The notes under the pieces are model-generated. The model was given only the letters and a program-made list of their open reading frames with translations, did no database searches and was not told where the DNA came from. Positions 7,001-62,423 of a stretch of 64,000 bases of DNA are shown in pieces. How positions within the stretch are numbered: the stretch's first letter is position 1; each line of letters opens with the position of its first letter. Source of the stretch: Blasia pusilla (lineage: Eukaryota). The DNA lies in the NCBI GenBank assembly GCA_050084515.1, contig CM114271.1, forward strand, positions 26,164,001 to 26,228,000, read 5' to 3'. The position numbers and the translations under genes are program-made.

Positions 7001-7564
7001 TTACATGTAGTAAGTGTGACAAGACATTTTCCATGTTTGAAAACACTAGAGAAAAACTATCCTAGTCAACAACTAGATGTCAACTATCTTAGTCAACAAC
7101 CATCTACTATTAAAACCTCAATGGTGTAGAACCTTAACCACTTTCACTCGAGTGAAGGTTGCTATCACTATCCTATGCTTTTGCACATGTAAGAACTTTC
7201 AATACATTAATGAAAATCGTATGCCTATTTGGTAGATTTTTTTTTCTAAAATTCATATTTATGATTCTTTTCTTTTAGAAAATAAGTAATAACCCCAAGG
7301 TTGCACACCGATAAAGTCATGTCTACACACATATGTTTTCCCTAAAACAAACATGTCCCTCCTATGGGCCTAAGTTACCATGGCTCAAAGTCAGGCCCGC
7401 CCCACCCGAAATGGAGACCCGGGTTTAGCCAGCCCGCATCCAGCCAAGTACTGCAATTAATCATCCAATTACTCCATAGCAGGTGGGGACTTCAATTCTC
7501 CAAGTCGGAGCAAATCCCCCAGCGAGCAGTGGAGCGAAGGTTCAATTCTCTGCTTGTTTCGTGA

Positions 7565-11983: not shown

Positions 11984-12472
11984 CTAGATCGCTTCACCGA
12001 GTTTCGCTTGGGCATTTACTTGCTGCTCAGCCGTGGCTTTCAACTCGAGCTCGCGGTCAGAGAAAGGAGGCACAAATCTCTTCCAGAACCAGTGAGTGCC
12101 CCAGACATGTTGCATTTCTTCGATCGGAATTCCCTTGGTCTCGGGCAAAAAGAAGATGACGAAAATGGTCATGACCAAGATCCACGCAGTGAAGAAAAGG
12201 AAGATACCATACTGCATCTTACAGAGCATGGATAAGAACGCCTGGGCGATCACGAAGGTGAAGAAAAGATTAGTCGACACTGTGATACTTTGTCCTGCAG
12301 ATCGCGTCTCGAGAGGAAAGGTCTCGCTGGGAATCAGCCATCCCAGAGGACCCCATGACCAAGCGAACGCTGAGACATAGACGCAGATTAGCACTACTAT
12401 CACTATAGCGCTTCCGCTGGGGAGCTTACTAGTGTTACTCAACTGTGCTCCAAGGATCACTCCTATCGCCAG
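11984..12472 (-). CDS. STP13: STP exon 4 (489 bp including TAG)
   Basis: CAG acceptor at 12475-12473; LAIGVILG...HWFWKRFV...EAI*. Confidence 0.92.
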
Positions 12473-14582
12473 CTGCACAGTCCCACAGAAATCCAGTCAG
12501 AGGGCTACAATCCTTCCTTCACAGGCTTTATGGGCTTACCTCACTGGCTTGCCCATAAAATTCCGACTAACGCCACCTTCGTACGGACGGCTCGCAATCC
12601 GACGCATCGTGACGTGATGATGCGTGCTACTGCTAGGAAAGGACGTTCATGGTGCAGCAATCTCCCGGTCCAGTCGAGTAAAGATCGAAACTACCCGAAA
12701 GACTGCGAGCCACAGCAGTTACCGCCCGCCACTGGAAATAAAAAAACGGGACAGCTACGGCAATGGAGATAAGAAATGTAGTAAAATCCGAGACGAATAT
12801 CGACGGTTGTTAGTTCCAATCTTCCAAGTTGAGTAGTACTTGTGCAGTCGGTGATTTTATGATATTATCAGAGACAGGGTCGTTTCGCTTATCTGTACCT
12901 GAGCGACGAACATCTGAACTCCGGCTTGCAAGAGCAACACTCTCCGGCCCACCTTATCGACAATGGCGACTGCAACTACGGTAGAGAGCACATTGACGCT
13001 CCCGGTGATGACGGCGGAGTAGAGAGCCGCGCTGGAACCAAATCCCAAAGTTTGAAACAGAACCGGAGCGTAGAACATGATGGCGTTGATGCCGGAGAAT
13101 TGCTGGAAAAGTTGCAACAAGATGGCGATCACGAGCTGAGGACGGTTTCGCCTTTTCAAGATGTTCTTGAACGGGTGCTTAACGAGCGCCGCGACTTCAC
13201 TGGCGAGGACCATGTCGTCGTACTCCGCCTGCACATTAGGAGTGCCTCGGACCTTCTGCAGGATTCGCTTCCCCATCTCCATTTTGCCACGCTCGATCAA
13301 ACTATTGGGGGTCTCCGGAAGCAGCATGCCTCCCAGTGCCAGTAGACCTGCAGGAACTCCGGCCAGCCCGAGCGCCAAGCGCCAACCCCACGGATTAATC
13401 TTCTCTGCTCCGTAGTTGACAAGATTTGCGAACAAAATTCCCACGGTCACTGCGAGCTGGAAGAGAATATTCAGGCCTCCTCGTAGGTGCGTGGGTGCAA
13501 TCTCCGACAGATACAAGGGAACAGCCTGCACCCATTACCATGTGTGAGAGATTTTTCATCACCAAACGGAGACGCTACTTTTTGGCGAAGCAAACAGTCG
13601 GAAGCAGCGAATGATAGCGGCCTCCGACCTTCTGTCGTTGCATGGAAGCTCAACGTCGGAAGTTCATGAAATTGACGAAGTTCTCGACACGACTCGAGAG
13701 GGCCTTGTCTGATGGCCTCACCTGGTTGGCAAAACCGACTCCACAACCGAGTAGAACTCGCCCCAGGATGAGAACTACGATGCTAGGAGCCGCTGCACAC
13801 ATCGTCGTTCCAATCACAAAGCAAACAGCGGCAATTTGCATCGTCGGACGTCGCCCGAGTCGACGAGAGGTGTATGAGGCGAAATAAGTTGCCACCAGGC
13901 CGGCGATGTACAAGCTGGACGTGAAGGCCTGCAGTTTTTGATTGTTGTACTTGCAGTAGTTTCCATCGGGATTATTTGGGTCCGTCTTCCTCGCGAGGAC
14001 TTCGGGGAAGAATTTCGCCAGAAAGGAGTCCATGCTCGTCACACCCCCTGCACCGAACAAGGGAATCCCACACAGTGATCAAAACAAGATCGTAGGAAGC
14101 CTAATCAGGCGCCATCTTGCCATCCTTCCAGCCTCCGTGAGCAGGACCCCAATCTGTCGCATCCTAGAATCTATTTATTATTCACTTCCAACGGAAACGA
14201 ACTGCGACGTTTCTTCCGCCGCAACAAAACTTCAATCGTAACAGTCCATTACAGTCCCGACATCGCGCACTTCATCCCCTCTGAACAATCCCCAGTACCA
14301 CGTAGGAGCTCATCTCATCCAATTCAGTCTCCCTAGAGGTGCAATCGCCACGAATCTTACGAACGACGGTCCGCGCAGAGCTCCAGACGAAGATCCAGAG
14401 ATCAGCGGGAAGAAATAAAGACAGTGCATCGAACTGAGCAACAAACCTGAAATTCCAACATCGTAGCCGAACATGAGACCGCCGCTGGCCGCCAAAATGC
14501 AAGTTAGAATCACGTAGATTGTGACTCTTCCCTCGTAAGGCTTCCGGCCTGGATCCTGCGGAGCTAGCATACCCCCCGCCAT
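11984..14582 (-). CDS. STP13: Sugar transport protein (STP/MST family, MFS hexose/H+ symporter), STP13-like; join(14582..14447,14047..13722,13525..12899,12472..11984), 525 aa
   Basis: Hallmark motifs: [105 protein letters not shown]. All three introns are GT-AG and in phase, at positions typical of plant STPs. The exact orthology label is tentative. Confidence 0.93.
12899..13525 (-). CDS. STP13: STP exon 3 (627 bp)
   Basis: CAG acceptor at 13528-13526; AVPLYLSE...QMFVAQ; GT donor at 12898. Confidence 0.92.
13722..14047 (-). CDS. STP13: STP exon 2 (326 bp)
   Basis: CAG acceptor at 14050-14048; GGVTSMD...GFANQ; GTGAG donor at 13721. Confidence 0.92.
14447..14582 (-). CDS. STP13: STP exon 1 (136 bp)
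   Basis: ATG at 14582; MAGG...GYDVGIS; GT donor at 14446. Confidence 0.9.
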
Positions 14583-15607: not shown

Positions 15608-17784
15608 TATATACAGTATATATATGCCGACGGGAATTCTACATTCTCTTGGGTTATATGTGGGAGAATTTTGGGCCAGAGAAGATTTTATGCGATGATA
15701 ATTCTGTAGTTTGGTGGCATATGAGCTATGTTTTAAATAGTATAGAAATTTATCTTCTCACATCATGCATCCCTCATCCTAATTAGGAATGGAGGAGTGA
15801 GAATAAGGGGGTTTTCCACTGCAACGAAATCTGGTTTATGTAGGTAATTGGACTCGTGGGGACGTGTTTAGCATGCTTGGGCATACCCCTAGTAATACTA
15901 TAATGCTTGCACAACCCGCACTAGCATGCTAACCTGTTTAGAAAAGAAAATGGCTACTGTGATACATTCTCATCCTTTACTATTTTAAACCAAGTGGATA
16001 GTTCTTCATTTTAAAATAATGTATCTTTTTCTTTGCTTTATAGTATCTCGGTTTTTAAAATTTTCCCAAGTCTATAAAAAGAAAGTGACTCATCATCTTT
16101 CCTTATTAGGTTTGGGACCGTTTAGAATTATTTTTCTATTATAAGTACTTTCCCTTTTTCAATTTTAAAATAGATGAAAAAATTAATGGTCCTATCATAT
16201 CTTGCAAAGCCACCTGTAATTTAGTGACTCGCCTTATTGATTTCTATAAAAGGTAATAAAAAAATTTATATTTCTTCTTTGAAATTATTTTTCAATTCTT
16301 TAGAAGATAATTTATCGAGATAATAACTCCCCTTTCCTCAATTTATAGTATACATTTTACTTAAATTTTATTCTAGACTCTAGAGAAAGCAAGAAAATGA
16401 AGAGACACCTCATCGTTCTCTTCTAAGATTTCATGTATTTTTTAGATTCTCTCCAAATTAAATAACTTCATTTATTTCAATCATAATATAGATGAGATCA
16501 TTTATTGCTCCATTCATAGAAAACAATATCTAATTTAGTGACTCACCTTCTTTTTCTTTTCCTATGAAGGAATATGACACATCTTATTTCCTCTGTGAAA
16601 AGAGTTATCCTCTCATCCCTTCCCCATGTAATAGTATAGATAAGTAAGAAGATAGATAAAAAAAAATTCCAATTGAATGAGGTTTCAACTTAAGAATGCC
16701 TATCTTTTCCTAATAAGACAGATATTCATTGTAGAGTGCAACCGCTATCCCTCCTTGCTAGCCCACAAAGAGACCCCAACTTTGAGTCACGTGAGCAACA
16801 GATGTGGGTTGAGTCACAAAAACCCAACCGACCACGATTCATGTCTAGGGGATGTCATTGAAGGAAAAGTTGACAACAACGTACGTTAAACTAAAGGATG
16901 TTTTTAATTGCCAACGGAAAATCTTTTGGAATTTTGTCGAACTTACACAAGGGAGTGGGAAATTAAAAATATGAAGTCGATGTAAGCAAAGCCCTCAAAA
17001 AATGGGGAAAATAGTTCAAATGTTGGTCGAAAGTTGCAAGGGGTGAAGAAATTCCCCCCAAAAAAATTGATTATAAGATCGAAAGTTGCAAGGGACTATG
17101 CAATTCCAAAGAAAATATCAATAAGAAAATCTCAAATAGAATATAAAAATATTGATATTATTATATTGTGAGCTTGGTTTCCAATGATCCTCTCCTCAAA
17201 ATGATTTCAAGGGAATGTTTTTATATTCACTTGGATTATTTCACATAATCGGTTTTGACCTATTGGTCCAAGTAAAAACCTGAAATTCCTATATGACACT
17301 AATGATTTAGTTAAAATAGATATAAATTCAATTATTCTTTTAGTCACCATGACTCCCAAATTCAAAGATGCACATACTACATGGTATCTTGATGGTCATG
17401 ATAAATTTGTAGTAGATGAGCACATGAGAAGGATGGAAATTTTTTAATAAAATTTTTGGATTTGTCAATCCATAATTTTTGTAATAGATGTAAAATATTT
17501 TTGCTTCACATGGTTTTTTGGATTATAAAAATTTTAATTAATAAAGGGAGGATCAAATATGGAGAAAAGTAGTCAAAAAGTTATTGAAGGGTATTTTTTA
17601 TAGGCATATTTTAATTAAGTTGACTAAAAATAGGGAAGGTCAAATAGGGGCCTAGCCGCAAGTGGTATATGGGGCATATGTACTATGACATCCCCAAGAT
17701 TCATGTGTTGTGTAGGTGAGTTGATTAAGCGGTCTAACACTAATCAGCATAATCGGTTCGAAATCTCTCCACATGCGTACCATC

Positions 17785-18270
17785 CAAGGTTGCACGCGAA
17801 CAAAGTCCGTGTCCGTGGACTTGTCCGTACCGAGGACGGACATGTCCGTGCGGGCCCGGGTGCGGGCTCCATGAGCCCGCGTTGCCCACGGCCCGCACCC
17901 GGGCCCGTGCACACCAAGCAATCCGCCCTTCTGGCCAGTGCGCATTATGCCTGACCCCTGTTTTCTGTCGAACCCGCGTCGAGGACAAATTGGGTCGCGT
18001 CGCGCCCTCTAATCCGACGCTTTGGGCCTAGCCCGCATGCGGGCTCTAAGGCCCGCGTACATCCCGCGCGTGGGCTTTGTGGCCCGCAACGGAGCCCGCA
18101 TGCGGGCCTACGAGCCCCCACCCCTGCCCGCATGCGGGCTCTAGGGCCCGCAAGCCCCACCACCCCGCCCACATACGGGCCCGCGAGCCCCCCCCGTAAG
18201 CCCGCCGTAGCCTGCCCTTCCCGCAAACCCCGCGGGGACACGTGGCGGCCTGGGAGTGGTTGGGCCAAGT
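17785..18270. repeat. Left subterminal array (GCCCGC/GCGGGC, TGTCCGT motifs)
   Basis: Dozens of short GC-rich motifs in both orientations, typical of hAT transposase-binding arrays. Confidence 0.75.
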
Positions 18271-18965
18271 TTGAACTTGGCCCCAACTCCCTCCCCTCCC
18301 CTTCCCCCTTTTTTCCCTTTGGGGTAAAACCCATAAGGGAAGGGCCCACAAGGGGTGCAAAAATGTACATATGGGGGGGGGAGTTTAAAAGGTAATTGCC
18401 TAATTAACCCTTATTTTCCCTATTTATCCCAAAAAAAATTGATATTTTGGATTAGGCTCCAAATTTTTATGGTGCCTTGAGAGCTAAGGGCTTTCAAGGT
18501 TACTAGGAATTTTGGAGAAATCCCTTGGGTGCCTTTTGGGAGTACTTGGATTTTATTCGGGACGAACTTGGATATTTATGCTCCTTGTTGCATCTAAAAT
18601 AAACTCCAATTGACTCCACATTAGGTGAGTGTTGGTGAGTGTGGAAATCTCTTGTTTCACTAAACTTGTTTGGTGATTTTGAGATTTCCGATTCATAGAC
18701 CCGAATTTTTTGACTTGTTCCATTGGTTCTCCTTAGCACATCGGGGATGTCGAGGTGATCAAGGAACCTTATCTAAACAAGCCCATATCTACCTATTCCC
18801 TTTGAGAGCCCAACCCTTAACTTCCATCATTCACACGCTAGTACATTCTGAGCCATTTTTTTAGCATCTCACATCATTCTCTTTTCGGTATTTTCTTATC
18901 TCAACCCGTACATTTCTATCCCTTGTATTTTTTTAAGATGTTATTATCTTCTTCATCCAAGGGAA

Positions 18966-20380
18966 ATGTCTAGTGGGGTTGGGTCATCGAGAGCGAGAGA
19001 GAACCGAAATGAGTCCAACGTCGGTGCCAAGAGGCAAAGAGCAACTATGAGGAATAATTTCAACATGGCCGTAAGAGAGGCATAGTTAGACTCGTTTTTC
19101 CATCTTTCTTGAGAGAAGAGGCGATCCTACATTTTGACGGGTATGGATGGTTTACATGACTACACCTTGGAATTGCAGAGATTGTCCAATAGAGTGGCAA
19201 AAGCATTTGACTGGGAAGTAGATGCTGCGGAGGCGAATAGGTTGACTAAATTTTGTGCCCAACAAGGTGTTAACCTGGAGAGAGCATATGTCAATCTCAA
19301 GACATATAAGGATGAGAAGCAGAATGCTGTAGACTCGGCTCTCCTAGAAAGATTTTTTATGGAGTTAAGAAGTGCTCAACGTCTTTTCAAGGGACGTAGT
19401 ACTTCTCTGGGGTTGACATTGACCGTTCCATGTGCAATAACTTTGATTTCCGATAAGAATGTAGTAAGAGGACATGCCTCGAGCGATATTGTGGGAACCG
19501 ATTAACACAAAATCGTGTACCGTTGTAAAATAAATGGAACCCATGGCTTTAGGGAAGAAATATACTATTGCATGAAGGTGTATAAGGAATCATCTCTATC
19601 AGGATCTAGAAAATCGATGATGCGAGAGGAGTTGTTTGCTAGTATTTTACATCGCGGTGTTGTTCGCATGGTGGGAAGGTTGATTGAGGATCCACCACGT
19701 GCCATTTTTCCATATTGGAATGGTGGGCACCTCAAAAATTGGTTGTGAGCATGCCATAACTTGAAGAACAGCGGGGGAATCTAGGAGAGTTGGAAAAGAT
19801 GAGATGTCTCGCAATAACATCAAATGTCGTCCAGCTTGTGGTTGCCCTTCTTGGAATCATGGAGACTGTCCACAAGCTTGGGGTTTTCATACCGACCTCC
19901 ATGCTAGAAACATGTTCATCCATTTTGGATCCAACTCTAGCCCATACATCGACATTAGAGATTGGGGGAATGTCATGTGGACTGATGAAGGCTTAGAGTC
20001 TCCTCATAGATGGTGGCATCAGGAACAAAAAGATCATGTTGGGCATATAGCAGCGGAGTTGACGGTACGGCCTCATAATCTCCCTTTTAGCAAGGCCACT
20101 AAAATCTATGCCTTAGGAATGATTGTGAAGAATTTGAACTATGTAACATACAACCTCTCAGTTGGGAATGCCCAAGCAAACGTGAGATTTACTTATTTGG
20201 AAAGGATTCCAAAGTGGGCATTAGTTCCGAATCCCTCAGAATCGCAAAAGCTTAGAGTTTCTTACTGCATATATTAGAGCAAATGCGAAAGTATTAGGTG
20301 CAGGCGATGTAGATTTGGGATTAAGGCCAATAATAGTGGTTGTATGATTGTAAATCCGTTTGAGGATTGGATATTTTTCA
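18966..20380 (+). pseudogene. Atypical protein kinase cargo gene (disrupted by stops and frameshifts)
   Basis: ATG 18966 is in frame with ORFs 19134 and 19515. Kinase subdomains appear in order: IVYRC (I), YCMKVY (II), REE (III), LHRGVVRMVG (IV), FPYWNGGHL (V), HTDLHARN (VIb), DWG (VII), HIAAEL (VIII), IYALG (IX). Confidence 0.75.
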
Positions 20381-20541
20381 TGAGAAATGAAAGACTTCGT
20401 TCAAAAAGATGAATGTGTGACTATGAAATTTTGTGAATGATGAATCTTGATTGATGTTTGGATGTATCGTGTGCCATCGTATAACTATTATTGGAATCAT
20501 TTCTAAATCACCTTTCTTTTTGTATTTTGGTAAAAGACAAG

Positions 20542-21797
20542 ATGGAGTTGCCACCTCATGAAGACCGTAGCCCTTACGAAAATTAGGACAACGGAAGAGG
20601 GGAATAACCCCTAGATACACTGACACCAGAGATCCCTCCAAAGTTGAACAAGAAGACGGTCTTGCAATTCGTCACGGAAGATGAATTAAAGGTGCACTTG
20701 GATAGCACCATTGACCCACAATTTTTGAAAGGAGAGTTCAAGAAGTTGCGGTTGAAGTGGCCGGAGTGTGCGATTGGAGAATTTTCAAGGAAAGTGGAAG
20801 AGGATGATTGGACAAAGAATTGGGCTTTATTCAATGGCGTAAGAAAATACGAAGACCTCCCCAAGAGAAAGATGAAGTTAGTGAGCAATTTATTTGTTCA
20901 GCTCAAAGTTGCGGAGTTGATGAAGGATATGGAGATCCAGTATGGCGATGTGGATGAGGGGTCTTTGAGAAGAGATAAGAGACCAAGAGAACCCCACGGA
21001 AACACTTTAAACGAGCAAGAGTGGAAGCTTCATCACCACGAGCGTCGTCACGCCATTATCAGCAAGGTAGATTGTCAAGGAGCCCTAGAGCCATACTATC
21101 TTCCTTGGATGGTCAAAGAAGAAATAGTCGTACTAAAGAATATATACAAGACGAGAGTGGAGATGAAGGGCAAGTACAAATGGGGGCAGAGGATAGACGA
21201 GATGGTTTGAATGGCCTCTATGTAGGTCGTAGTACGAGCTTTGATGAGCCCGGGGAGAGTTCTAATCGCCCTATACAAAGCGATGCTCCTCCCCAAACCT
21301 TTCGCATGGAGAGTGCTCCGGATAATAGCGAGGTAATGTCTCGTCTTTCACAGTTGGAGATTTTAATAACAAATTCCCAACGCAATTTTGATTTGGCCGC
21401 GGAATTCAACGTTTTGAAGGGGAAGTATGAACAGCTATTTGAGGAGCACATAAAATTGAAGAAAGAGATGAAGAGGCTCTTGAAAAAATATATTGCCAAA
21501 GATGACCTCCATAGAAGGCAAAGAATTGTAATGGTTGACCACACAAAGAAATGGAGAAGAGCATACGAGAACATCATGGCAAGACAACATCAAGAAAAGG
21601 ATGAATTGTTGCGATGGGGTCTTATGATTTTACACCTTCTCCACCTTTCTCATCTTGAAATAAAATTTGACCCACATGGTCTCCAAGGTGCATCTAGCGG
21701 TCTTGCCAATTTTCAAGCAAATTGGAGTTGGGACCACAAGCTCAAAATTTGGCAAGTCCTTTTTGGACCCGAACCATCGGACCTTCTATCAAAATAA
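20542..21797 (+). pseudogene. Second cargo ORF of unknown function, with a C-terminal coiled coil
   Basis: ATG 20542 is in frame with the 188-aa ORF at 20644 through two TAG/TAA stops. A frameshift near 21210 leads into the 258-aa ORF (LSQLEILI...LKGKYEQLFEEHIKLKKEMKRLL). The 3' end runs into the tandem array. Confidence 0.5.
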
Positions 21798-22330
21798 GGA
21801 TTTTCATTTTTCATCTTGTGCAACTTTGTCATCTTGAGCTGAAATTTGGCCACATTTGTCCCCAAGGTGCATCTAGCACTCTTGCCAAGTTTGAGGCAAA
21901 ATGAAGTTGTAAGAAAAAACTCAAAAATTTCTAACTCCTTTTTGGACCCGAACCATCAGACCTTCTACCAAAATAAGCTTTTTCCATTTTTCATCTTGTC
22001 CCACTTTGTCATCTTGAGCTGCAATTTGGCCAACATGGTCCCCAAGATGGCCCTAGCACTCTTACCAAGTTTTAGGCAAAGTGAAGTTGTGAGCAAAACC
22101 CTAAAAAATTTTAACTCTTTTTTGGACCCGAACCATCAGACCTTCAATGGAAATAGTACTTTTGGCCCCCAACCACTAAACCTTCAATGGAAATAAGGTT
22201 TTTTTCATTTTTCATCATGTCAAACTTTCCCAACTTCCGTTTGTAGCACTCTTGCAAAGTTTTGAGCAAAATGGAGTTGTGACCACGAGCTCAAAAATCA
22301 CACTTACCAATTTCACCTTCAATGTAAAAA
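21620..22330. repeat. 179/180-bp tandem array (~3.5-4 copies) inside the hAT element
   Basis: The anchor tttggacccgaaccatc occurs at 21762, 21941 and 22121. Confidence 0.85.
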
Positions 22331-22526
22331 TAAATGCTTTATTAGCGATAAGTATATAAAAAGGATTTTCATAGAAATGACATTCTTACAATAGTCAACA
22401 CAAAATAATTTTGCCACAACTATCTACTAATCCGTCTCACTAAATTTTGTAATTACTCTTCTAGTCTAGGTCTATGGTTGGGTCGGGTGGATTAAGATGT
22501 AAGCGGTAATTTGGCGGATTAATAGT

Positions 22527-25207
22527 TCAAAGTCGGGTAGATCGGCGACGAGTTCCTATTGCAATTGTTTCATCATGGGAGGAAATGTATGAACTATCCA
22601 TGCCATGATTGATGGGTTGAGAGTTTGGAACCATAGGTATGAGAACATCATTATCATTAGGCTCATCAACTAAGTCCGCCGTTTCAACGCGCAAAGATTG
22701 TGGAGGAGTATCCCGCATAGGTTCACTAGACTCGGTGGAATAATTCTCAACTCCTACTGGTGCAGCAATCTGAGGGTCGTAGGTCATGTTAGGAGAAGTG
22801 CTGGGCAGATTGGCTATGCTTGAAGTCCTCCGTTGTGACTCTTCTTCGTGCTCTCGAATCTAATGTTCCATTTCAAGATCATCTTCATCTCTTCCGAGCC
22901 CTCAGAATCAAAATTTTCAGTGTTGCCGATATGAGTATCATGTCTCCCTTCGATGCCATGAATTCCACATATCACATCTACCTCCTTTAGATCCTCATCT
23001 TGCAAGTCAAGGTTATCTTCATGATTACCATCACGGTTTCTAGCATGCAAGCTAGATTCATTGCCATCTTCTACTACCCTTCTAGCTTGTTCTTGTCCTT
23101 CCCTTTCTGAAAAGTATTGCTTGTACAAGAGCGCTTGTCTTGATTTCCGAGAAACACCCTTGTCTCCAAACCTTGAGTTTGTGTAGATGTAAACCAAATC
23201 CCTGGCACGCTCGTTGGTTAATTTATTCCTGTGCTTGTTGTGGATGAAACCATAACTACTCCAATTTCTTTCCGTTGAAGAAGATGAAACCACTTGTGCT
23301 AATATAGACTTAGCCATAGAGCGCAATGTTGATGCACCTTGACCGTGCATGCTCCATCAATCAGAGGGACATAGTGAATCAACAACTTCCCTACCAAATT
23401 CATCCACAAATATTTCTTGATGGTTCATAATGTTGCCCAACTCTCGCAAGCAAGTTGCCACATAAGAATTAGCCTTGGTGACATTGAGGCCATGCACCCC
23501 CGTTGCATACAGTTTCAGATATTGTTTGAAATCTCTCATGCACCCAGTATTTGAAGTGACATCTTGAACACTATCAAGAAGATTGTAAGGGGCGAGAATG
23601 TAGCCTATTGCATGTAACTTGTTGTGGATAAGTGCCCACTGCCTAGAAATAACATCGACCACCTCTATAGCTCTAGACATTGTGACAAAATAACCGCGAC
23701 GCCTTCCGCCCACTCCGGGCCATGGAGTCACAAGAAAAGAACGAGTCTCTTCTATTATCTAAAAAATATGGCGATAAATACGCCTAGTCATTGCTTTATG
23801 ACCATCACACTCTCTCAATAGAATAATAGTTAGTTGAGCTGCAGCAAATAACTCCTCATCCTCCATCCAAAAATTGTGTCATAGTAGTCTTAATCTCTCG
23901 TGCCTTCTCCCTTTGCCTCGCATCACTGCCATTGAAATACTCCCTAAAAGCATTGGTAGCAACCATGGAGTGGAACGCCTCCCTCAATTCTAAGACGTGT
24001 CCCAATATGATAAAATTTGTTACAAAGCGTGTATTTGCAGGAAGCAACAATCGTCTCTTCATTGGATTGGTTTCCATAAATTTGTCATCACCCAAGTTCT
24101 AGTCTTCACAAATACTACCATCTCACGAGCTTGTGCAAAAATCCTGTCCACCCAAGGCCATTTACCCCACTCTTCACAGACTAGATCAAAATAATGTGAT
24201 AGGCATCCACCCCAAAGAATATGAGGGAACTTTGCTTCGATAAGTTTCCCTGCTGCTCGCTCATTGCTAGCATTTTCGGTCACAAGTTGCAACGTATTTT
24301 CTGGACCGATGCGCATGATAGTCCTCTCTATGTGACATTCCAACCATTCCGCCGTTTGGGATTCCCCTTTGGTGTCTACCGACTCAATCATGACCTCACC
24401 TTGTGGACAGGAGACCATTATGTTCACTAAAGACTCACTTCTCACATTGGTCCAAGAATCCGTTATGATTGTGGCCCCCAAACGTAAATTTTCCAATATG
24501 CCATCCACCTTTTCCTTCACCTTCCCCATATGTTTCTCAAGTAGAGTGGTGCGCAACGAATTGTAACTAGGACCTGAGTAATCCTTCACCTTTGTTGTTT
24601 CCAACACTCCTTCTTTGAAAGCAACTTGCCGTACTACGTTGAATGGTATTCCACATTCGTAGAAACACTTTGCCCACATGTCATTCGTAACTTCTATTCC
24701 TTGGATGTTGAAAGAATCCCTCAGATCAGCTTGCTTCTTCCCAGAATTACTACTCCCTCGAATGGGCCCAACAACTCCTCTGCATTCCTCGAGACTGTCA
24801 CTCCGTAGCATTTCCGCAACCCCATCAACATTTTGTACAACATAAACACTATTTCCTATTTGTTGCGAACCTATTTGTAATGGAGTTGTCTCTTCCACTT
24901 CACTCTAAGGTCTCGCTTCCCTTCTTTGTCCATTTCCCACTAGTACCCTGTTTCGGAGATTCCGTTGCATGCTGGGAGGGACCTTCACACATAATTTGGC
25001 ATGATGGGCATCCTGATTCCTATCCTTTGTCTTTCGTCTCTCTCGTGTAAAATGCTCTACCATCCGCGTGCTATGATAGGTTTTCATAGAATAGGAACAA
25101 TATTTGCACTGCCATGTGCTTGATGTTCCACCTTCGATCTGTACTTCTTCCCAATGTTCCTTCACAATCTGTTGGAGTTCTCTGGCTTTGGTCATGACTA
25201 CAGGCAC
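22527..25207 (-). pseudogene. hAT transposase (BED finger, DUF659/RNase H-like, hATC dimerisation domain), disrupted
   Basis: WQCKYC...RMVEHF (BED); FYECGIPFNVV; ITDSWTN...LVNIMV; GCLSHYFDL; LLLPANTRF; LHAIGYILAP; SSSSTERNWSSYGFIHNKHRNKL...DLVYIYTN. Split by stops and frameshifts. Confidence 0.92.
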
Positions 25208-26284
25208 TCACTAACCCCATCCAACAATATTTGGAAAATTTGTAATAATTTACTCTTGTATTAATTTGTAATATATGGTATAGGGCCCATAGTGATTTTG
25301 TGGGCCCGCGATGTGATTTGGGACACGATGGGCCTTTGCGTGCCTCGATCGGCAAAAGATCACTGGAGTATAGCACAGGATCGTGAAATCTTGTAAAAGA
25401 GTCAATATGTCAACAAGGTAAACCCAACGGGCTCCCTTTCGAGAGGTTTGGTCATAAGATTAGATACCGCCCAATGGGCAGAAGATGATATAAAAGGCGA
25501 GGGCTTACGTATCACGGGTTAAATAGGCAAGATATGCCAACACCCAGTGCTGACTTGTATCGTGGGTGACAAAACCCCTACTATGGGGAATGCTGGAATC
25601 AAAAGCTTTGGGCAACACAGGTTGCCTAGGCTATCGATCAGTAAAATGTATGCAAATTACACCAAATATTGTCCGTGAATGCTCCAATAACAAAACTTGG
25701 AACACTCACTATGAACAAGAAAGATCAATATGCTAACCTAGATAACCGAAATACCTGTAGTATCAAGGTTATCTAGTGGCAAAACATATTCTCACTTATC
25801 AAGTTGAGCTATCTATGGAGAAAAAAAACTTCAAAGAGAGAGAGAGAGAGACATGAAGGGAGGAATGAGATTATGAGGGTATACAAAAATTAAGCAAGTT
25901 TATATAGGTGAGGATGGAAGGAAGAGAATGAACCCTTCTAACTCCCCAAATCATCTACCTCCACTTACAATTGATTACCAAGCCATCTCCATTAATTTTC
26001 TTTAATAAACCTACTTTTATTCTCCTATTAGATTCCTTCTTGACCTATCCTAGCTTCTTGACCTACTTTCAATTTCCAACAGACCTATTTTACAATACAA
26101 CCACCCTATTCAAATCTATTTTAATATTGTCATTCCTTTCTCCACCACTAGGATCCCAAATTCATCAATTACTCTCATTTCTAACTAACCTATATTCTCC
26201 TACAAAAACCTTATTCCAACCTCTCAAACCATCAATCACCCAAACCATAATAGTGACAGAATTTATTTAATACCTCACTTGAAT

Positions 26285-27000
26285 CACAGGGCTCGCCCAC
26301 AACCCGTGGCCCGTACGACCCGCAAGAAGCCCGTGCGTAACCTCGCGACCTCGCGCTCTAGCCCGCACGCAGGCTCTGCGCGGGCTGCAAGCCCGCAGTG
26401 CAGGCCATCTGCAGGCTCAACGGCCCGCCTGCGAGCCCGCGCCCTAGCCCACACTACGGGCCTTGGAGTCCGCGCGCAGGCTTTGCGCGGGCTCTAAGGC
26501 CCGCAACTAGTCTACGCTTGTAGGCTCGGCGGCCCGCATGCGAGCCTACGACCTAGCCTACACGCAGGCTCCAAGGTCCGCAACAAGCCCGTGCGCGGGC
26601 TCCCATGCGGCCGGGCTTCAGGGCCCTCACCCTAGCCCGCAAGCAGCCCGTGCATGGGCATCATCGCCCGCACCTAGCCCGCAAGCAGCCCGGACGCAGG
26701 CTTTAGGGCCCGTACCCTAGCCCGCATGCGGGCTCCAAGGCCCGCAAGCAGCCCGGATGCGGGCTTGAGGGCCCACATCCAAACCCGCACGTCGCACTCG
26801 CTTGCAGCCCACCTTACGACTGAGGCCCGCAACCTAAAGGCACCCTTCATCGGAGCCCGCACCTGTGGCCCGCAAGTGGAGCCCGCGCGGTCGATCTGGG
26901 CGTCACAAATACCCGTGCTCACGCTCGGTGTTCCATGTCCGTGGTCATGTCTAGACATGTCCGTCCCATGGACTGACTTGTCTGTTTTCGTACAACCTTG
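26285..27000. repeat. Right subterminal array of the hAT element
   Basis: Many gcccgca/gcgggct motifs, ending in catgtcc repeats and the TIR. Confidence 0.75.
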
Positions 27001-30000
27001 GTATCATCTCCCCAAGAAGACTCAGCCACTAAGCCGTGACCATTCTCCACCAAGTGCATCCAAATCGTAGCACATCAACTAATCTTCAAGGTGCATCTCG
27101 ATTCCCGAATGGTTCCTTGGCTTAAACTTGAAATATGGTTTACTACTTCTTCCAACACTCGAGCACAAGGGGAGAGAGAGTCTCATCTTATAGGTGCTTT
27201 TGGTATTCTCCTTGGGAGCCTCACTTTCCCAAAATATCCATGTCGGGCCCTTAGTTGTGGCCCTCAACCCAAACATGGTTTGTGTATCGTGAACCGTGTT
27301 TGACAAGCTCATCCCCAAGATAACTTGGCGGAGTCTCATAATTGATTTTGCCTATCTTGACTTCCAAAAACTCACCTTGGATCTTTGTCATGCATTTAGT
27401 GCATATCATGGCCAACGCCTCTTTTCACTACCATCATTTGGTATCTTATAGTTGGCTTTCAGACTCTTTCCGACCTTCGGGCTTTGCGACTAGTCTCATG
27501 ACGTCTTGCCTCGTCCTCTATCCCCTTGCATAGCTATGCCTCCTTTCTCCTAAAGTCGGTCTTAATTAGCATTTGTCCTACGGCCAATTTTTCCAACCTC
27601 TCTAGTCTTGTCATGAACTATTATAGGTTTCCACTTTTGGTAAGTCATACAAAGGTCGCTCTTCCCATAAGTCTTGACCCACAATCATGACTCAATGCTC
27701 AAGTACCTCTTAATGTAATCGTAATAGATTCAGCTATTTGCGACAATATCACTTTTGAAAGATTCTAAGTTGAAAACATAGCTTCTATTAATTCTTAGAC
27801 TTCTAATGGACTTACACATATAGACCAAAATCATCCTAAAATTTTAGTGGTAGAAAGTGGGGGACAATCCCTATGTATTTTTGTATATCCCTATTATAGG
27901 GGATCTATAAATAATGACTAAGATATTTCTTCTATTTTTAAATTTAAAATTTTGAGGCCATACTATAAGGATATCCAAAAATTACTGAAAGAGAATAATT
28001 TTTTTACTGATGAATTGATAATTACTTATTTAATAACTCGTGCAATGCATGAGAAATTGGTTATTCAAACATATAAAAATATTTTTAAAACGAAAATTTT
28101 AGCCAAGAAGTGAAAATTTTAATCTTGGATTTTTAAATCTTTCTATGAGGAGGATGACTCAATTATTCTAATTCTTATTACTTTCCATGTAAATATTTTA
28201 TGTATATATATATATATTCTTTTGGTTCTAATTTATCAGTTATGCATCATATTAATTTATATTTGAAAAAAAAATTTGATTGAAAAAGATTTTAAATTGT
28301 ATGAGAGAGAACATGCATGCCCAAAATTACATCAATTATCACTGTATTAAAAATTGAATGAACGTTTTCTTCCAAGAATAAATTTTATGATAGTAGGCAA
28401 AAGAAAGCACCTTCTATATCAAAAGCTAAAAATTCAACCTAACGCCATAAATAAAAATTAGTGCTTTTGTACTCCTGTGATGCAATGGGCCAAAGGCACT
28501 CTATTGAGCCCTCTTAGAGAAGGCCCATCCTTTTCGTCCCTTGACTGAGAGGGAGGGACTTCTTACAATTAAGTACTTTCCCTCTTTGATCCCCTTTTCT
28601 CTTTCCGGGCCACTTGTGGCCTTTGCGTACTACTTGACTCTTTGAGTCCCCCCTTATTTGTATTCTAATTGGGTTTTCCATCACTCAATTTTTATTGCGG
28701 GCTCTTTTATTCTTGACAAAACATAGTGTCATTCCATATTCCTAATTTTCCCATACCATCCCACTCATTCGCAATCTCCACCCTTTTTTCTCACCTCCAC
28801 TCTTTGAGGAATGGAGAGGGCTGGTCCCAACCCTTGCTTTGTCACTTAGGCTCCTTCCTTCCCCTATCATCTATCTTGTTCTCACATGGTAGATAACGTA
28901 GGTTAGGGGTAATGACAAGGGAATGCACATGGACTCCTTCTCGCTCCTTTAAGATGAAGAGGGATTGATAGGTCCTTATTAGGTCTCTTTAGAGGAACCA
29001 AAAGTCTTTATCCCTCCATATATAGAGGGGAGCTTTACAATTTCATTTCTCCCTTCTCTATTTGTGTGTGAAGGGTTCCTTATAAATCCCTCTTATATAT
29101 ATATCGAAAAGTGCTCAATCTCTCCCTCTTTCCTACCCCCAATAAAAAATTCAACCTTCTCTATCCTTCTCTGGATTATTGAAACTTACACATGTCAACA
29201 AGAATCCTTATAAACCCTTCATTGAACATTTAGAACTTTTTATCTTCTCTTTCCTTTTAGAAAATTTGTCCTTTTTTCTTTCTTTCCCTCCAAATCCCTT
29301 TTTCTCTTCCCCTCTCCTATTGAAAATTTTAATACTTAAAAACTTCTCATGATGCCCAATCTTATTGAATTTTTTTTCCCTTTTTCTTCTCTATTTAAAA
29401 TTAAAACTTATCTCTTCTCCCTTCGATCTCTTCTAAAAAATTAAAGACACAAAAAAGGAATCTCTCATTGAAAATATATCTTTTTCTTCTCCTCTCGTAA
29501 TGAAAATTTCTCCTTTTCTTTTCCACTATCCTTATGACATTCAACCCTTTAAATCATTTTCTTCTTAAGTCTTATATTTTTGAGAAATTATTTTGTTTCC
29601 TCTTCCCCTTATTTGATGATTATTTTCTCTTTTTATTTTTTATTAAATTTTGAATATTTCTTGATATTTTGTATTTAACCGAGGACACATTGCATGATCA
29701 TTGATGTATGCCCAAGTTCAAGACAACCCTTGAGGTTTCATAGAGTAATATGTCAAAAAAGGAGCATGTGCTCAAATAAATAAACTCAATATTTAGGTTG
29801 TTACGTCTTTTGGAACATAACGAAGAATACTCAAAGAAGACAAACATCAATCCTAAAAGCTCAAGGATAATCTATTTAGGACCAAGGCAACTTGAATGTG
29901 TAGGTTATCCATTGTTTTTGGCTCATTTGGAGCTATATTAAAAAACTTACCGCTACATGTAAATTCTATATTTTGAGAAGATTTGGATTTCCCTTTGGGA

Positions 30001-43101: not shown

Positions 43102-43516
43102 CATGGTTGCATAAAAACAGACAAGTCCATCACTAGGACGGACATGGACGGACAAGTGTGGACATAGCTATGGAAATGGATTTCAAGAGGTGGGGCCCAC
43201 ACTTATAGCTCATTGTGGAAGGCAAGGCAAGGGTAGGTGGGGCAATAAAGGGGGAAGGGAGTGGAGTTGGAAGAAGGAAGAAACATAAAATTGCGTAAGA
43301 TGGAGGCAAGTAGGGGGAATGAGAAAGAAGAAAACATTGAAACGTTGAACATACTTTGATTCTTCTAAATTTTCTTTCTATGTTTCATTCATTCACAATA
43401 TATGAGTAAGAAGGGGAAGGCGGGGCCTACATGGACAAGTCCTTCCAAAGGACAGGCGTATGTCCACGAAAATGGACATGTTTGCGGAACACAGACTTTT
43501 TCCACCTGCAACCTTG
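43102..43516 (+). mobile_element. hAT-family MITE (415 bp)
   Basis: TIRs CATGGTTGCA / TGCAACCTTG; TSD ACCGCAAT / ACCGTAAC. Confidence 0.85.
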
Positions 43517-47602: not shown

Positions 47603-48634
47603 CTACATGTTAGTGGTTAAGGGCCCTTGGAGTTGAAGAATTTGGGTGTGGAGACCTCTAACAGAATGAAAACATTGCATCACATGACGCTTTAGTTGCG
47701 AAAGAAGAGAAGAGAAGTGAGTTTCCTCACTCTTCACTGCCTCCACTAGTGCCTGAATGCATCCCACGTTCGTCTCCATTTCGATTTCACCGTTTTGGGA
47801 CTTTGCCTTATTCTTCAGCACTCGAATGAGCAGATCTAGCATTGGGGTTGGGAACGAAAACTCCAGAGACAAAGCTTTATCGAGGCAGAGGACTTCATCT
47901 AGGGATCTCTCTTCCTCTGAAATCGGCTGGATGGCTTGCAACTGGTAGCATGCTCGGGTGCAAGAGAGGCCACGTAGAAGCTTCACCACAACAGATCCTC
48001 CGAATCCTTCACGTAATCTGTGCTCATCTAGCCTCCTTTCTTCGAGAGAAATTTTATCCAACAAAAGGCTGTATCCGCTCCATGCAGTGTCAAACGCCCA
48101 CGAGAAGTCCTCCTTACATGCCTTCGTATCTGCCTTGTGCTTTCTCAGCACACGGAGTACATGCTTGACTTCATTGGCAGTTGGGGGCTCGGACGCTGAT
48201 AGTAGTTGCATCACCATGCGCATAGTCCGATCATTTCCAGCCTCCACTCTCTTGATGCTATTTCCGAGCCATTTGTAGAACTTGAGAGTGTTCAGGCTGT
48301 AGAAGAGTTGAGCACTCATGTAGCCGGTGAGAGCTTTCTGCGAGAGCCAGCCAGAGTTCTTCTTGTGGATCCTCAAAAGCATATTCAGGACTTGCTTGTC
48401 TTTCTCCTGTAGAAGGGTGGTCACAGACATCCATTGAGCGAAATTCTTCGAAGCAGAGTGGATCGATTTTGTCAGCCTGTTGAGTAGAACTTCGTTGCTT
48501 ATATAAGTGGAGGAGCTGGCGAACTCCTCCTCCACAGTCCCTAGACTGAAATCGAATTCGAATTGAGGCGGACCTTCGAAGCTGGCCTGCATCTTCTTGT
48601 CTCCAGAAGCTTGCGGATGTAAGTCCTGCGACAT
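47603..48634 (-). CDS. Intronless 343-aa helical protein, BPS1/ROH1 (DUF793)-like
   Basis: Long clean ORF in CpG-retaining DNA. QWMS..LLQE.....LNMLL......GW...ALTGY......SLNTL.....LGNSIKRVEAG and the C-terminal LSQLKRHVMQCFHSVRGLHTQIL fit the BPS1/ROH1-type pattern. The family call is tentative. Confidence 0.65.
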   Translation of the reverse strand: MSQDLHPQASGDKKMQASFEGPPQFEFDFSLGTVEEEFASSSTYISNEVLLNRLTKSIHSASKNFAQWMSVTTLLQEKDKQVLNMLLRIHKKNSGWLSQKALTGYMSAQLFYSLNTLKFYKWLGNSIKRVEAGNDRTMRMVMQLLSASEPPTANEVKHVLRVLRKHKADTKACKEDFSWAFDTAWSGYSLLLDKISLEERRLDEHRLREGFGGSVVVKLLRGLSCTRACYQLQAIQPISEEERSLDEVLCLDKALSLEFSFPTPMLDLLIRVLKNKAKSQNGEIEMETNVGCIQALVEAVKSEETHFSSLLSQLKRHVMQCFHSVRGLHTQILQLQGPLTTNM

Positions 48635-50921
48635 GAAATGAAGCCCAAGAACAAAACTTCAAGAATCCGTGCAAAGGAAGATCAAATTACCAGTCTCGCG
48701 CGGAAGCAGGCTCGAACTCACAATGTCTAAGAGATAGCGCGCAGCTCGGAGAAGGCACAGGAGAAGCGGCGTGAGAAATGCATGCTTGACAGACGAGAGT
48801 TTCACTGTCGCTAAGGGAGAAGGAATTACATGAGATCTTGTCAATGCTGTCCTCAGCTTGGTAACATCTCTGAGAAATTCCAGACTACCAGAATGCCGTT
48901 CTCGTGAATCGCCGAGCATGGAGCCTTCTGTGTCCGACTTCATCTACTCGTTGGAAAGGTTCGTGCGCAAACTTCCTTTTTGCGTTCTTGCATGTTCCTC
49001 CCGATCAAATAGTAAGTCCGACAGTGCCACAACTGTCTATCGATTCCGCTCGAAGTCCCTCGTGCTCGTGCTCGTGCTCGTGCCAGGACTCGACATGCGA
49101 CGCTTCGTCCCCACCCCAAACCTTCAAAATGCCATCGCAAGGTGCACAACGGGCAGAGCTTTGTACACGATGGGAACCCAACACGGCCGGTGCTCCTGAC
49201 TTCACAAAGAGTAGCGGTAGATCTAGCAGGTGTTCCGCAAGAGTAGACGGTATATACAAGAGTCGAGCTCGTTACAGGCAGCAGCACTCAGGCATGAGAA
49301 CTGAATCGCAATGTTCACAGAATGGGGACAGTCACCCACTTCCCTATTTTGGTGGACCTACATGGAAAGCTTCTCCAAATGCGCAGCGGTTGGTTGGTTC
49401 CTCCGGCGTTTCTGAGATTTCTCGCAAGAGGTAAGTAAACATGAAGAGGAGAGGAAAAGGTATGGCGCTTTCCATCCTGGTCGCAATCATAGCTTCTGCT
49501 GCGTCCATGCATTAGACTCACCTAAGACTAGTAAGTAACAATCCATGAGACAACGACTAACGAGTCCCAACCAAATAATGTCATTGCTGCATCCGCAACA
49601 CCACACATACCTCTGTCGTACTCGCAGATCTTTACGTCAGTAGCAAGTACATCGCCCATTAACTGCACACTGGAAAGCTTTACCAGACAACAAGTGGCTT
49701 CTGTTTTTTAAGACAAAAACAGACAACAGAATTATCTTTTTTTACGATTATCCTCTCTCGCTTTGGCTTCCTCTTCTCCTCGTCCTCCTCGTCCTCAATC
49801 CTACCTCTTCTAAGCTTGAACTGCAGGGATACGCCATACAAAGATAGCCAGGAAAACGAACCCGATTGAGCTCCAGAGAATTCTGGTGGATCTAGACAGT
49901 AAGCGACGAAACCTCCTGGCTTCTTCCACGGAGGTTCATTCGCTCACAAGCGCATGGATGTCCGCTGGCAATCGGAACTCCTGGAAGGAAGCTCAAGTAG
50001 GATGGTGCATGCACGGAGGATCCCTTTCCATTCCTTTTCCAACTACTGCCACCACTTTTGATTGCCTCGCTATTCTCGGAGGTAGCCAATGGCTCGAAAA
50101 GCGGGACCGCGGTACGTTATCCGTGGGTGCCAGATTCCCGATGTAGCTCCTCACCTACCTTCCTTTTCTCGGATGCATTACTGCAAGGATTAGCAAGTAA
50201 TAATTTGGAGCTGCGGGCAAATTTGAAGCGGCAGTCAGCACTCGGATTTTCCGAGGGAAGGCAGCAGAGTCGAGCATCAGAGTTATGATGCACCGAAGGT
50301 CATGAGCATACTGTTGCTGTCCGGCCCATAGTTCCGAGAGTAGTAAATGCCGGATTGTTCAGAAACAACGAGTACGAGCTGCAGCTCCCTGCCACTTCTT
50401 GCCGTTAATGAACAGGCCTCCCAGATGCAAAATGGCCTGCAGGGTTTTACCTCCTTTCAAATCATTTCCGTCAGGTGGGCCACTAACAAGCATCTGACAT
50501 TGTTATGTGTCGCCTCTGCATTCGTACCTTGCTCTGTGCGCTCAAGCTTTAGAGATTCAACCATTTCTTTTTCGCTTTCTTTTGCATCGCCGTCATCATG
50601 TGGTGCGCAGTCCCCTCCTGGCGCTTCTCGGACTTGCGCAGTACAATCTGACACCCTTACCTTCGCTGAAATTCAGCAGGAAACCCCACCCATCTGCACC
50701 CAGCAGCGGCACACCAATGTGATTGTGATGCTGCTTCGCCAATCACCTTCCAATTTATCACCCACCTCTGTCCCAAGTCCTGATGATCCTCGCCACCCGT
50801 CTCTTTTCCTTCTGGAACTTTATCATGATTCTCAATGACTCGATCTAACTTTATCTGTCAGATCCTCCATTGTATTCTCTCTCACTCTCTCTCCTGTGAA
50901 ATAAATCACAGCACTCATTCA

Positions 50922-62166: not shown

Positions 62167-62423
62167 CAAGGTTGTACGAAAATGGACAAGTCTGGACATG
62201 TCCCACGGACATGCTGCTCGATGACCCGTGGCCCGCATCCGAGCAACCTCTTGAAGCCCGTAGAGCCCATAGCGGGCACCTGGGCTGGTCGAGCCCGCAT
62301 TGGTTTTGTGCCCGCTATGGGCTTGGCGAGTTCTAGGGGCGAGCCGCACGTACCCGAGCCTGCACAGCCATGTCCGTCCTTGGACATGTCCTCACACACG
62401 GACTATGTCCGTGTGCGACCTTG
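62167..62423. mobile_element. hAT MITE (257 bp) closely related to the ends of the 17785-27000 element
   Basis: CAAGGTTGTACGAAAA is identical to the right TIR of the large element. The other end is GTGCGACCTTG, the interior is GCCCGC-rich, and the TSD is partial (GCGAGAAT/GAAGGAAT). Confidence 0.8.

Follow-up and report, generated by a model that had tools for sequence, protein, structure and literature searches.

The 64,000-nucleotide stretch of Blasia pusilla DNA analysed here (assembly GCA_050084515.1, contig CM114271.1, positions 26,164,001 to 26,228,000 of the forward strand; hereafter the window, with coordinates counted from its first letter) contains a 9,216-bp transposable element of the hAT superfamily at 17785–27000. 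Between the ends of the element lie a decayed kinase-like gene (19143–20277, plus strand), a second gene encoded by open reading frames (ORFs) in two frames and here called ORF2 (20542–21626, plus strand), a tandem array (21627–22145, unstranded) and a decayed hAT transposase gene (22527–25207, minus strand). An annotation made from the sequence alone (the original prediction) had placed two plus-strand genes opposite a minus-strand transposase, with an array of about 180-bp units between the convergent 3' ends; the gene order was seen as described, with the second gene split over two frames, and the array was found to have a period of 179 bp.

Boundaries of the element and its transposase

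The element is bounded by 12-bp terminal inverted repeats (TIRs), CAAGGTTGCACG at 17785–17796 (plus strand) and CAAGGTTGTACG at 26989–27000 (minus strand), which are alike at 11 of 12 positions. Both were located by pattern search, and the left one is also marked by breaks in genomic reads. The octamers GTACCATC (17777–17784) and GTATCATC (27001–27008), read directly from the sequence and identical at seven of eight positions, abut the TIRs and have the form of a target site duplication (TSD) of 8 bp. The TIR pattern CAAGGTTGYACG, with at most one mismatch allowed, matched five times in the window against 0.29 expected, and five matches were reached in none of 100 shuffles. Each TIR opens a GC-rich subterminal arm: 616 bp on the left (17785–18400; GC 0.66), built of TGTCCGT and GCCCGC(A) repeats, and 750 bp on the right (26251–27000; GC 0.65), which also shows short tandem periods of 31 and 42 bp. 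GCCCGC occurs 15 times in the left arm and 20 times in the right, a density of 24–27 per kb in the arms versus 0.13 per kb in the interior. TGTCCGT-type motifs adjoin the TIRs, and the ends of the element are CAAGGTTG-type.

Short TIRs, an 8-bp duplication and subterminal repeats are the usual build of a plant hAT element, and 17785–27000 has this build. In the classical representatives Ac, Tam3 and Tag1, subterminal repeat arms accompany short TIRs and an 8-bp TSD, and the transposase has BED and hAT-dimerisation domains. They are 3–5 kb long and are not known to encode more than the transposase, whereas the element described here measures 9.2 kb and carries two further genes.

The transposase was reconstructed from ORF translation, Pfam matches and a read-through translation, all on the minus strand. 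From its N terminus it comprises a BED-like CxxC...HxxxxH part (24905–25207), a DUF659 part (24059–24904; Pfam E 5.4e-36), a frame-shifted middle read in the other frame (23856–24098), a further piece (23357–23758), the hAT dimerisation domain (22814–23356; PF05699, Dimer_Tnp_hAT, 31.6 bits with a cut-off of 21.4) and a tail (22527–22859). The CxxC...HxxxxH pattern is visible in the sequence, and Pfam returned no zf-BED match in that part at E ≤ 0.1. The gene is broken by eight internal stops in the single-frame read-through of 22814–25207, in addition to the out-of-frame segment at 23856–24098. Read through with X at the stops, the translation aligns collinearly to a BED/DUF659/hATC protein of 795 aa from Centaurea solstitialis (P0009), which has a zf-BED domain (25% identity over 550 aa, E 5e-47); this was the one match among 6,195 candidates in a word-based protein search. 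The blocks TDSW, CLSHYFDL and STERNWS align with ADGW, CAAHCIDL and CERNWS of the Centaurea protein, and they may hold the catalytic D, D and E of the RNase-H-like core. When metagenomes were scanned with the DUF659 piece, two matches of 46 residues each at 39% identity were obtained (L001 and L002).

The TIRs, the 7/8 TSD, the DUF659 and Dimer_Tnp_hAT domains and the collinearity with a BED/DUF659/hATC protein together support the identification of 17785–27000 as a hAT element that was inserted as a single unit. The 9.2-kb unit had been delimited in the original prediction by the same TIRs and 7/8 TSD, and its left end is now corroborated by genomic reads that run from it into unlike flanks.

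Related ends were observed elsewhere in the window. A gene-less element of 257 bp at 62167–62423 has a CAAGGTTGTACG tip and GGACATGTCC-type subterminal motifs at either end, and its flanking octamers match at only five of eight positions; it looks like a derivative of the same hAT family resembling a miniature inverted-repeat transposable element (MITE). Two more single ends of this kind, CAAGGTTGCACA at 7296–7430 (plus strand) and CAAGGTTGCAGG at 43420–43516 (minus strand), are followed by ATGTCC-type motifs and GC-rich sequence. The presence of these MITE-like ends elsewhere in the window indicates that the ends of the element are mobile. Separately, a 25-nt inverted repeat (22606–22630 and 26214–26238, 92% complementary) flanks the transposase gene on both sides; it was considered as an inner pair of ends and rejected, being only marginally above chance for the region and showing no extension.

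The kinase-like gene, ORF2 and the tandem array

The kinase-like gene was delimited by an ATG at 19143, by tblastn with proteins of the genus Riccia and by a weak match to PF07714. An N-terminal extension (19143–19502, plus strand) precedes the kinase domain. The reading frame is interrupted by TAA at 19503–19505, by TGA at 19746–19748 and by frame changes near 19772 and 19883, and this copy has no working ORF for the kinase (two stops and at least two frameshifts). The kinase had been predicted to decay like the transposase, and stops and frame changes are indeed present in both genes. Pieces of the window kinase scored 18.6 and 17.0 bits against PF07714 (PK_Tyr_Ser-Thr), under the cut-off of 23.1, and gave no match to PF00069.

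Its placement among the kinases comes through relatives. Four Riccia proteins (P0004–P0007) used as tblastn queries matched the window at 19287–20223 only, with 26–38% identity and E values down to 5.7e-25, and the match takes in the region N-terminal of the kinase domain. One of the relatives, P0005, scored 51.8 bits against Pfam Pkinase (cut-off 31.7). Among solved structures (PDB) it matched MAPK6 (E 1e-8) and B-Raf (E 4e-6), its loop aligning with HRDLKPAN and DFG of MAPK6, and its protein atlas model has a kinase fold (predicted template modelling score, pTM, 0.80). Near the Riccia kinase the atlas also set two Streptophyta clusters, one of 55 members (491 aa) by structure, at TM 0.84, and one of 64 members by features. 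Because P0005 passes the Pkinase cut-off, the window gene is placed among the kinases by transitive homology. At the level of sequence, this homology is real, though very divergent.

Alignment of the window gene with P0005 pairs CMK with CVK, MREEL with DREIL, HTDLHARN with HCDLHIGN, DWG with DWG and AAEL with APEL. All of the catalytic residues are present: Lys of beta-3, Glu of alpha-C, the catalytic Asp with its Asn, Asp of DFG and Glu of APE. Departures from the usual kinase pattern are found at the Arg of HRDLK (Thr or Cys), at its Lys (His) and at the Phe of DFG (Trp), and in the window copy the Gly-rich loop has degenerated. The motifs FPYWNGG, H-(T/C)-D-L-H-x-x-N, DWG, GHIA-x-EL and KAT-x-x-YALG are common to the window gene and the Riccia proteins. 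The spacing from FPYWNGG to the H-x-D motif is 53 residues in the window gene and in P0005 alike, and the kinase domain is therefore without an intron. The domain and its N-terminal extension are collinear with the Riccia proteins, with none of the fragmentary or chimeric make-up of a Pack-type capture. These comparisons support a predicted kinase domain that is complete and uninterrupted, as had been proposed at the outset.

Relatives of the kinase were few. An exhaustive HMMER search with its C-lobe against 1.84 billion representative proteins yielded two matches at E ≤ 0.001: a 261-aa Riccia fluitans protein, which is a true relative, and P0003, which was discarded as a spurious match to a repeat protein. 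A search with the 261-aa protein found three more Riccia proteins among 381 candidates. None of the 138 candidates in a word-based protein search with the N-terminal half of the kinase scored, no relative was present among 586 pattern matches in a metagenome scan with the kinase alignment, and no close host-type kinase was found in the word-based or representative protein searches. The "protein kinase domain-containing" proteins of R. fluitans and R. sorocarpa (R1flu_028521, R1flu_006866, R1flu_001133 and cluster mates, and R1sor_017346) are the only sequence relatives found, N-terminal extension included, and they are dispersed, fragmentary and repeat-like. R. fluitans has at least six fragmentary gene models of the kinase family (75–263 aa) on five chromosome-size contigs, which looks like the way in which a dispersed repeat appears in an annotation. 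The kinase probably has a long evolutionary history separate from that of ordinary plant kinases.

ORF2 is split over two frames, 20608–21210 (200 aa) and 20979–21797 (272 aa), and its product has a coiled-coil-like C-terminal half. It may start at a possible ATG at 20542, upstream of two in-frame stops. When that half of the element was shuffled 300 times, the longest ORF to arise had 192 aa, which is shorter than either of these two. A Pfam search with ORF2 returned coiled-coil families only, all sub-threshold; no match in the protein atlas search reached 0.9, the best being 0.80 (lead level or below), and a single-sequence AlphaFold2 model was unusable (predicted local distance difference test, pLDDT, 28.8).

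The array beyond ORF2 has 2.9 copies of its 179-bp unit with 83% matches, and it overlaps the end of the second ORF2 frame. At 21617, 69 genomic reads continue unlike the window copy with a mutual agreement of 0.91, and at 21801 a further 88 reads arrive unlike it; the segment 21617–21801 differs in most other copies. Because reads diverge at these two positions, it seems that in this copy the normal 3' end of ORF2 has been replaced by the first array unit.

Probable family membership and transcription of the kinase and ORF2

Raw genomic reads of the same species (run X11, about 2 billion letters) were compared with positions 17000–27800 at a likeness of at least 80%, and 9,056 reads were placed. 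Depth, summed over both directions, was 6.4, 10.0, 6.3 and 1.3 in the four flank bins and 66 and 40 in the end bins. It reached 91–95 upstream of the kinase, 96–147 in the kinase bins, 102 in the interval between kinase and ORF2, 106–130 in the ORF2 bins and 115–166 in the transposase bins. The interior of the element is thus 10–100 times deeper than its flanks, and the kinase and ORF2 stand at 0.8–0.85 of the transposase (kinase/transposase ratio approximately 0.84). The array is about twice as deep as its neighbours, at 245.

At the left end (17784/17785), 233 reads (74 + 159) break into flanks that agree with one another only at 0.35, and these flanks therefore represent many different insertion sites. 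Together with the interior depth, the left-end breaks show that the element exists in many copies at different sites. A break at 17822/17826 marks relatives that have the tip alone in common. None of the best-supported break points listed (17784/17785, 17822/17826 and 21617/21801) flanks the kinase block. The original prediction had also asked whether the kinase/ORF2 segment has termini of its own; no inverted or direct repeats were found at its borders, the best match having an E value of 0.7.

The reads also bear on the frame of the kinase. Of 115 reads, 29 had an additional G after 19772, and of 136 reads, 63 had an additional T after 19883. These insertions fall exactly at the kinase frame shifts of the window copy, which indicates that other copies are frame-open at these points. 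Taken together, the equal depth, the absence of flanking breaks, the frame-restoring bases in other copies and the lack of own termini suggest that the kinase and ORF2 belong to the hAT family as permanent components rather than being a capture private to this copy. The proposal that the cargo is a standing accessory module is supported to this extent, as regards its probable place in the family; a possible function is taken up below.

Two runs of raw RNA reads, X14 and X15, placed 148 and 223 reads, respectively, on 17000–27800. Nearly all of them are less than 95% like the window copy and therefore come from other copies. Over 18444–21692 (nine bins summed), first-mate depth on the minus versus the plus strand was 18.0 versus 0.8 in X14 and 28.4 versus 1.9 in X15. 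In the transposase bins the corresponding values were 5.4 versus 8.9 and 5.4 versus 6.1, and in all but one of these bins the bias is the reverse of that over the kinase and ORF2. The minus-side depth there lies almost wholly in bin 24220–24580, where the loose ends of reads agree at 1.0, a sign of a single chimeric transcript. Provided that the libraries are stranded in the usual way, this change of strand from one convergent block to the other is consistent with both being transcribed in the sense direction.

RNA reads whose loose ends are in full mutual agreement (1.0; 7–25 reads) were seen at three places, 19345–19433, 21665–21773 and 24414–24580, the last piece being antisense to the transposase. 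They suggest single transcripts, arising at other genomic sites, in which short exon-like pieces of the hAT family are included.

Precedents for the cargo and competing explanations

The element is probably an old, dead copy of a multi-copy land-plant hAT family, the full-length form of which carries a kinase, ORF2 and a transposase. In such a three-gene element, the kinase and ORF2 would be read inward from the left arm and the transposase inward from the right arm, the two sets of genes converging. Most of the genomic reads are less than 90% like the window copy (5,421 of 9,056) and only 30 are at least 99% like it, from which it follows that the family is old and that this copy is one decayed member.

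Precedents for additional genes in cut-and-paste transposons come from two reports on fungi. In Pseudocercospora fijiensis, 9.5-kb hATs of the DUF659 type with 8-bp TSDs contain an intron-less histone H3 copy that was amplified to hundreds (PMC6710886). The resemblance to these elements of Dothideomycete fungi is close, as both have a DUF659-type transposase, a length of about 9.5 kb, short TIRs, an 8-bp TSD and a whole, intron-less cellular-type gene that lies between the ends and was amplified with the element (PMC6710886). They differ in that the histone cargo can be recognised as a housekeeping gene, its parent is intact in the host and its copies were inactivated by repeat-induced point mutation (PMC6710886), whereas the element described here, from a land plant, has a very divergent kinase for which no close host-type relative was found, and a second ORF. 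In the second report, hAT7 elements carry TET/JBP genes, which also occur in other fungal cut-and-paste superfamilies, and IS3EU elements carry an alpha-kinase (PMC12730594). These rust-fungus elements are like ours in being cut-and-paste transposons whose families characteristically keep a gene for an enzyme next to that for the transposase, and in IS3EU the kinase gene is, as here, opposite in orientation to the transposase (PMC12730594). However, IS3EU is fungal, belongs to another superfamily and carries an alpha-kinase, unlike the eukaryotic protein kinase type (Pkinase) found here in a plant hAT; hAT7 is also fungal, has a dioxygenase as its cargo and makes a 7-bp rather than an 8-bp TSD (PMC12730594). 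The statement in the original prediction that typical hATs encode only a transposase therefore needs qualification in view of these published exceptions, histone H3 (PMC6710886) and TET/JBP in hAT7 (PMC12730594). Its author knew of no kinase-bearing hAT family, and none was found in the literature searched, plants included; Repbase reports and paper supplements could hold one.

A serious rival to a kinase that serves the element is passive transduplication, in which a hAT ancestor took up the kinase, and ORF2 along with it, from the host or another element and the cargo was then copied along as dead weight. We regard this as a real possibility, though not the likelier account. The histone H3 hATs of P. 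fijiensis provide a precedent of the same anatomy (PMC6710886), the kinase of the window copy decays like the remaining element, and the equal read depth fits passive carriage as well as it fits a functional reading. Against it, the kinase is far from ordinary kinases, with only Riccia relatives at E 0.001 among the 1.84 billion representatives; at only 26–38% identity, Riccia has the N-terminal extension and the catalytic Lys, Asp, Asn, Asp and Glu in common with this plant, which would be hard to keep without constraint; and the RNA reads of the kinase are biased to the sense strand. Because the catalytic residues and the N-terminal extension have been kept relative to Riccia at about one-third identity, and because of the sense RNA, the balance tips towards constraint on the kinase over passive carriage, as judged from sequence comparison and read strand.

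Intact copies may make an active kinase that serves the element, a suggestion we offer tentatively. With similar reserve, such a kinase might phosphorylate the transposase, ORF2 or a host factor involved in silencing, and thereby tune transposition or silencing. In the most specific form of this idea, which is possible but doubtful, a hAT lineage common at least to this plant and Riccia would keep a very atypical, catalytically competent kinase (with H-x-D-L-H-x-x-N and DWG motifs) and a coiled-coil partner as a selected module that would regulate transposition or weaken silencing by the host. Such an element would be the first hAT to bear a kinase, and its kinase a signalling enzyme owned by a transposon in plants.

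Several points weigh against the three-gene family and a serving kinase. The window copy is dead, with two stops and at least two frameshifts in the kinase and many lesions in the transposase, and its kinase, taken alone, falls below the Pfam cut-off. No read or listed contig piece joins the kinase and the transposase on one molecule in another copy, and the equal depth of the two genes is indirect evidence for their linkage. The GC-rich arms (18083–18443 and 26386–26746) have a depth of about 15, 5–10 times below the interior, and the tips are deeper too; this may reflect sequencing bias, fast divergence or repeat turnover, or copies and subfamilies with other arms. The divergence of most reads from this copy, given above, belongs here as well. 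ORF2 is without a relative or a predicted fold in the searches made, and the Riccia relatives are known here from proteins and gene models alone. RNA depth is low and comes in part from single chimeric transcripts (loose ends with an agreement of 1.0 at 21665, 21773 and 24414), and the stranded nature of the RNA libraries is an assumption.

A nested or composite origin, with the kinase/ORF2 block as host DNA or an independent mobile element that entered this one hAT copy, would account for an interior that is long for a hAT and for the more abundant array beside ORF2, which has roughly double the depth of the adjoining sequence and varies between copies. It is nevertheless very unlikely, as the block has neither termini nor duplications of its own, its depth is the same as over the transposase, neither single-copy nor much higher, and no well-supported break points flank it. 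Least credible of all is a chance bracketing of a host kinase gene and a transposase relic by two unrelated MITE-like ends: the window does have several related ends (at 7296, at 43516 and on the 257-bp element, 62167–62423), but the 7/8 TSD abuts both ends, the whole interior is repeated about 10–100 times more than the flanks, and both arms are of the same GCCCGC-rich build.

The three-gene hAT family, if correct, would have consequences beyond this locus. Few cut-and-paste transposons are known to have a second gene that codes for an enzyme, and every such case has given a clue to how the element handles its host, as with the fungal TET/JBP genes. Enzyme genes in such transposons are already known, and a putative kinase cargo in a hAT appears to be new as far as we have found; retention of a kinase by a family of plant hATs would add another case, and orphan "protein kinase domain-containing" gene models of liverworts would be explained as transposon genes. 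If the cargo is passive, the element would still clearly illustrate, for plants, how a hAT can transduplicate a whole gene.

Two host genes were noted in the neighbourhood of the element. A sugar transporter of the STP type with at least two exons lies at 11984–13534 on the minus strand (Sugar_tr, E 4e-62 and 4.5e-30), and a 351-aa ORF at 47603–48658, also on the minus strand, has a sub-threshold match to the plant family DUF677.

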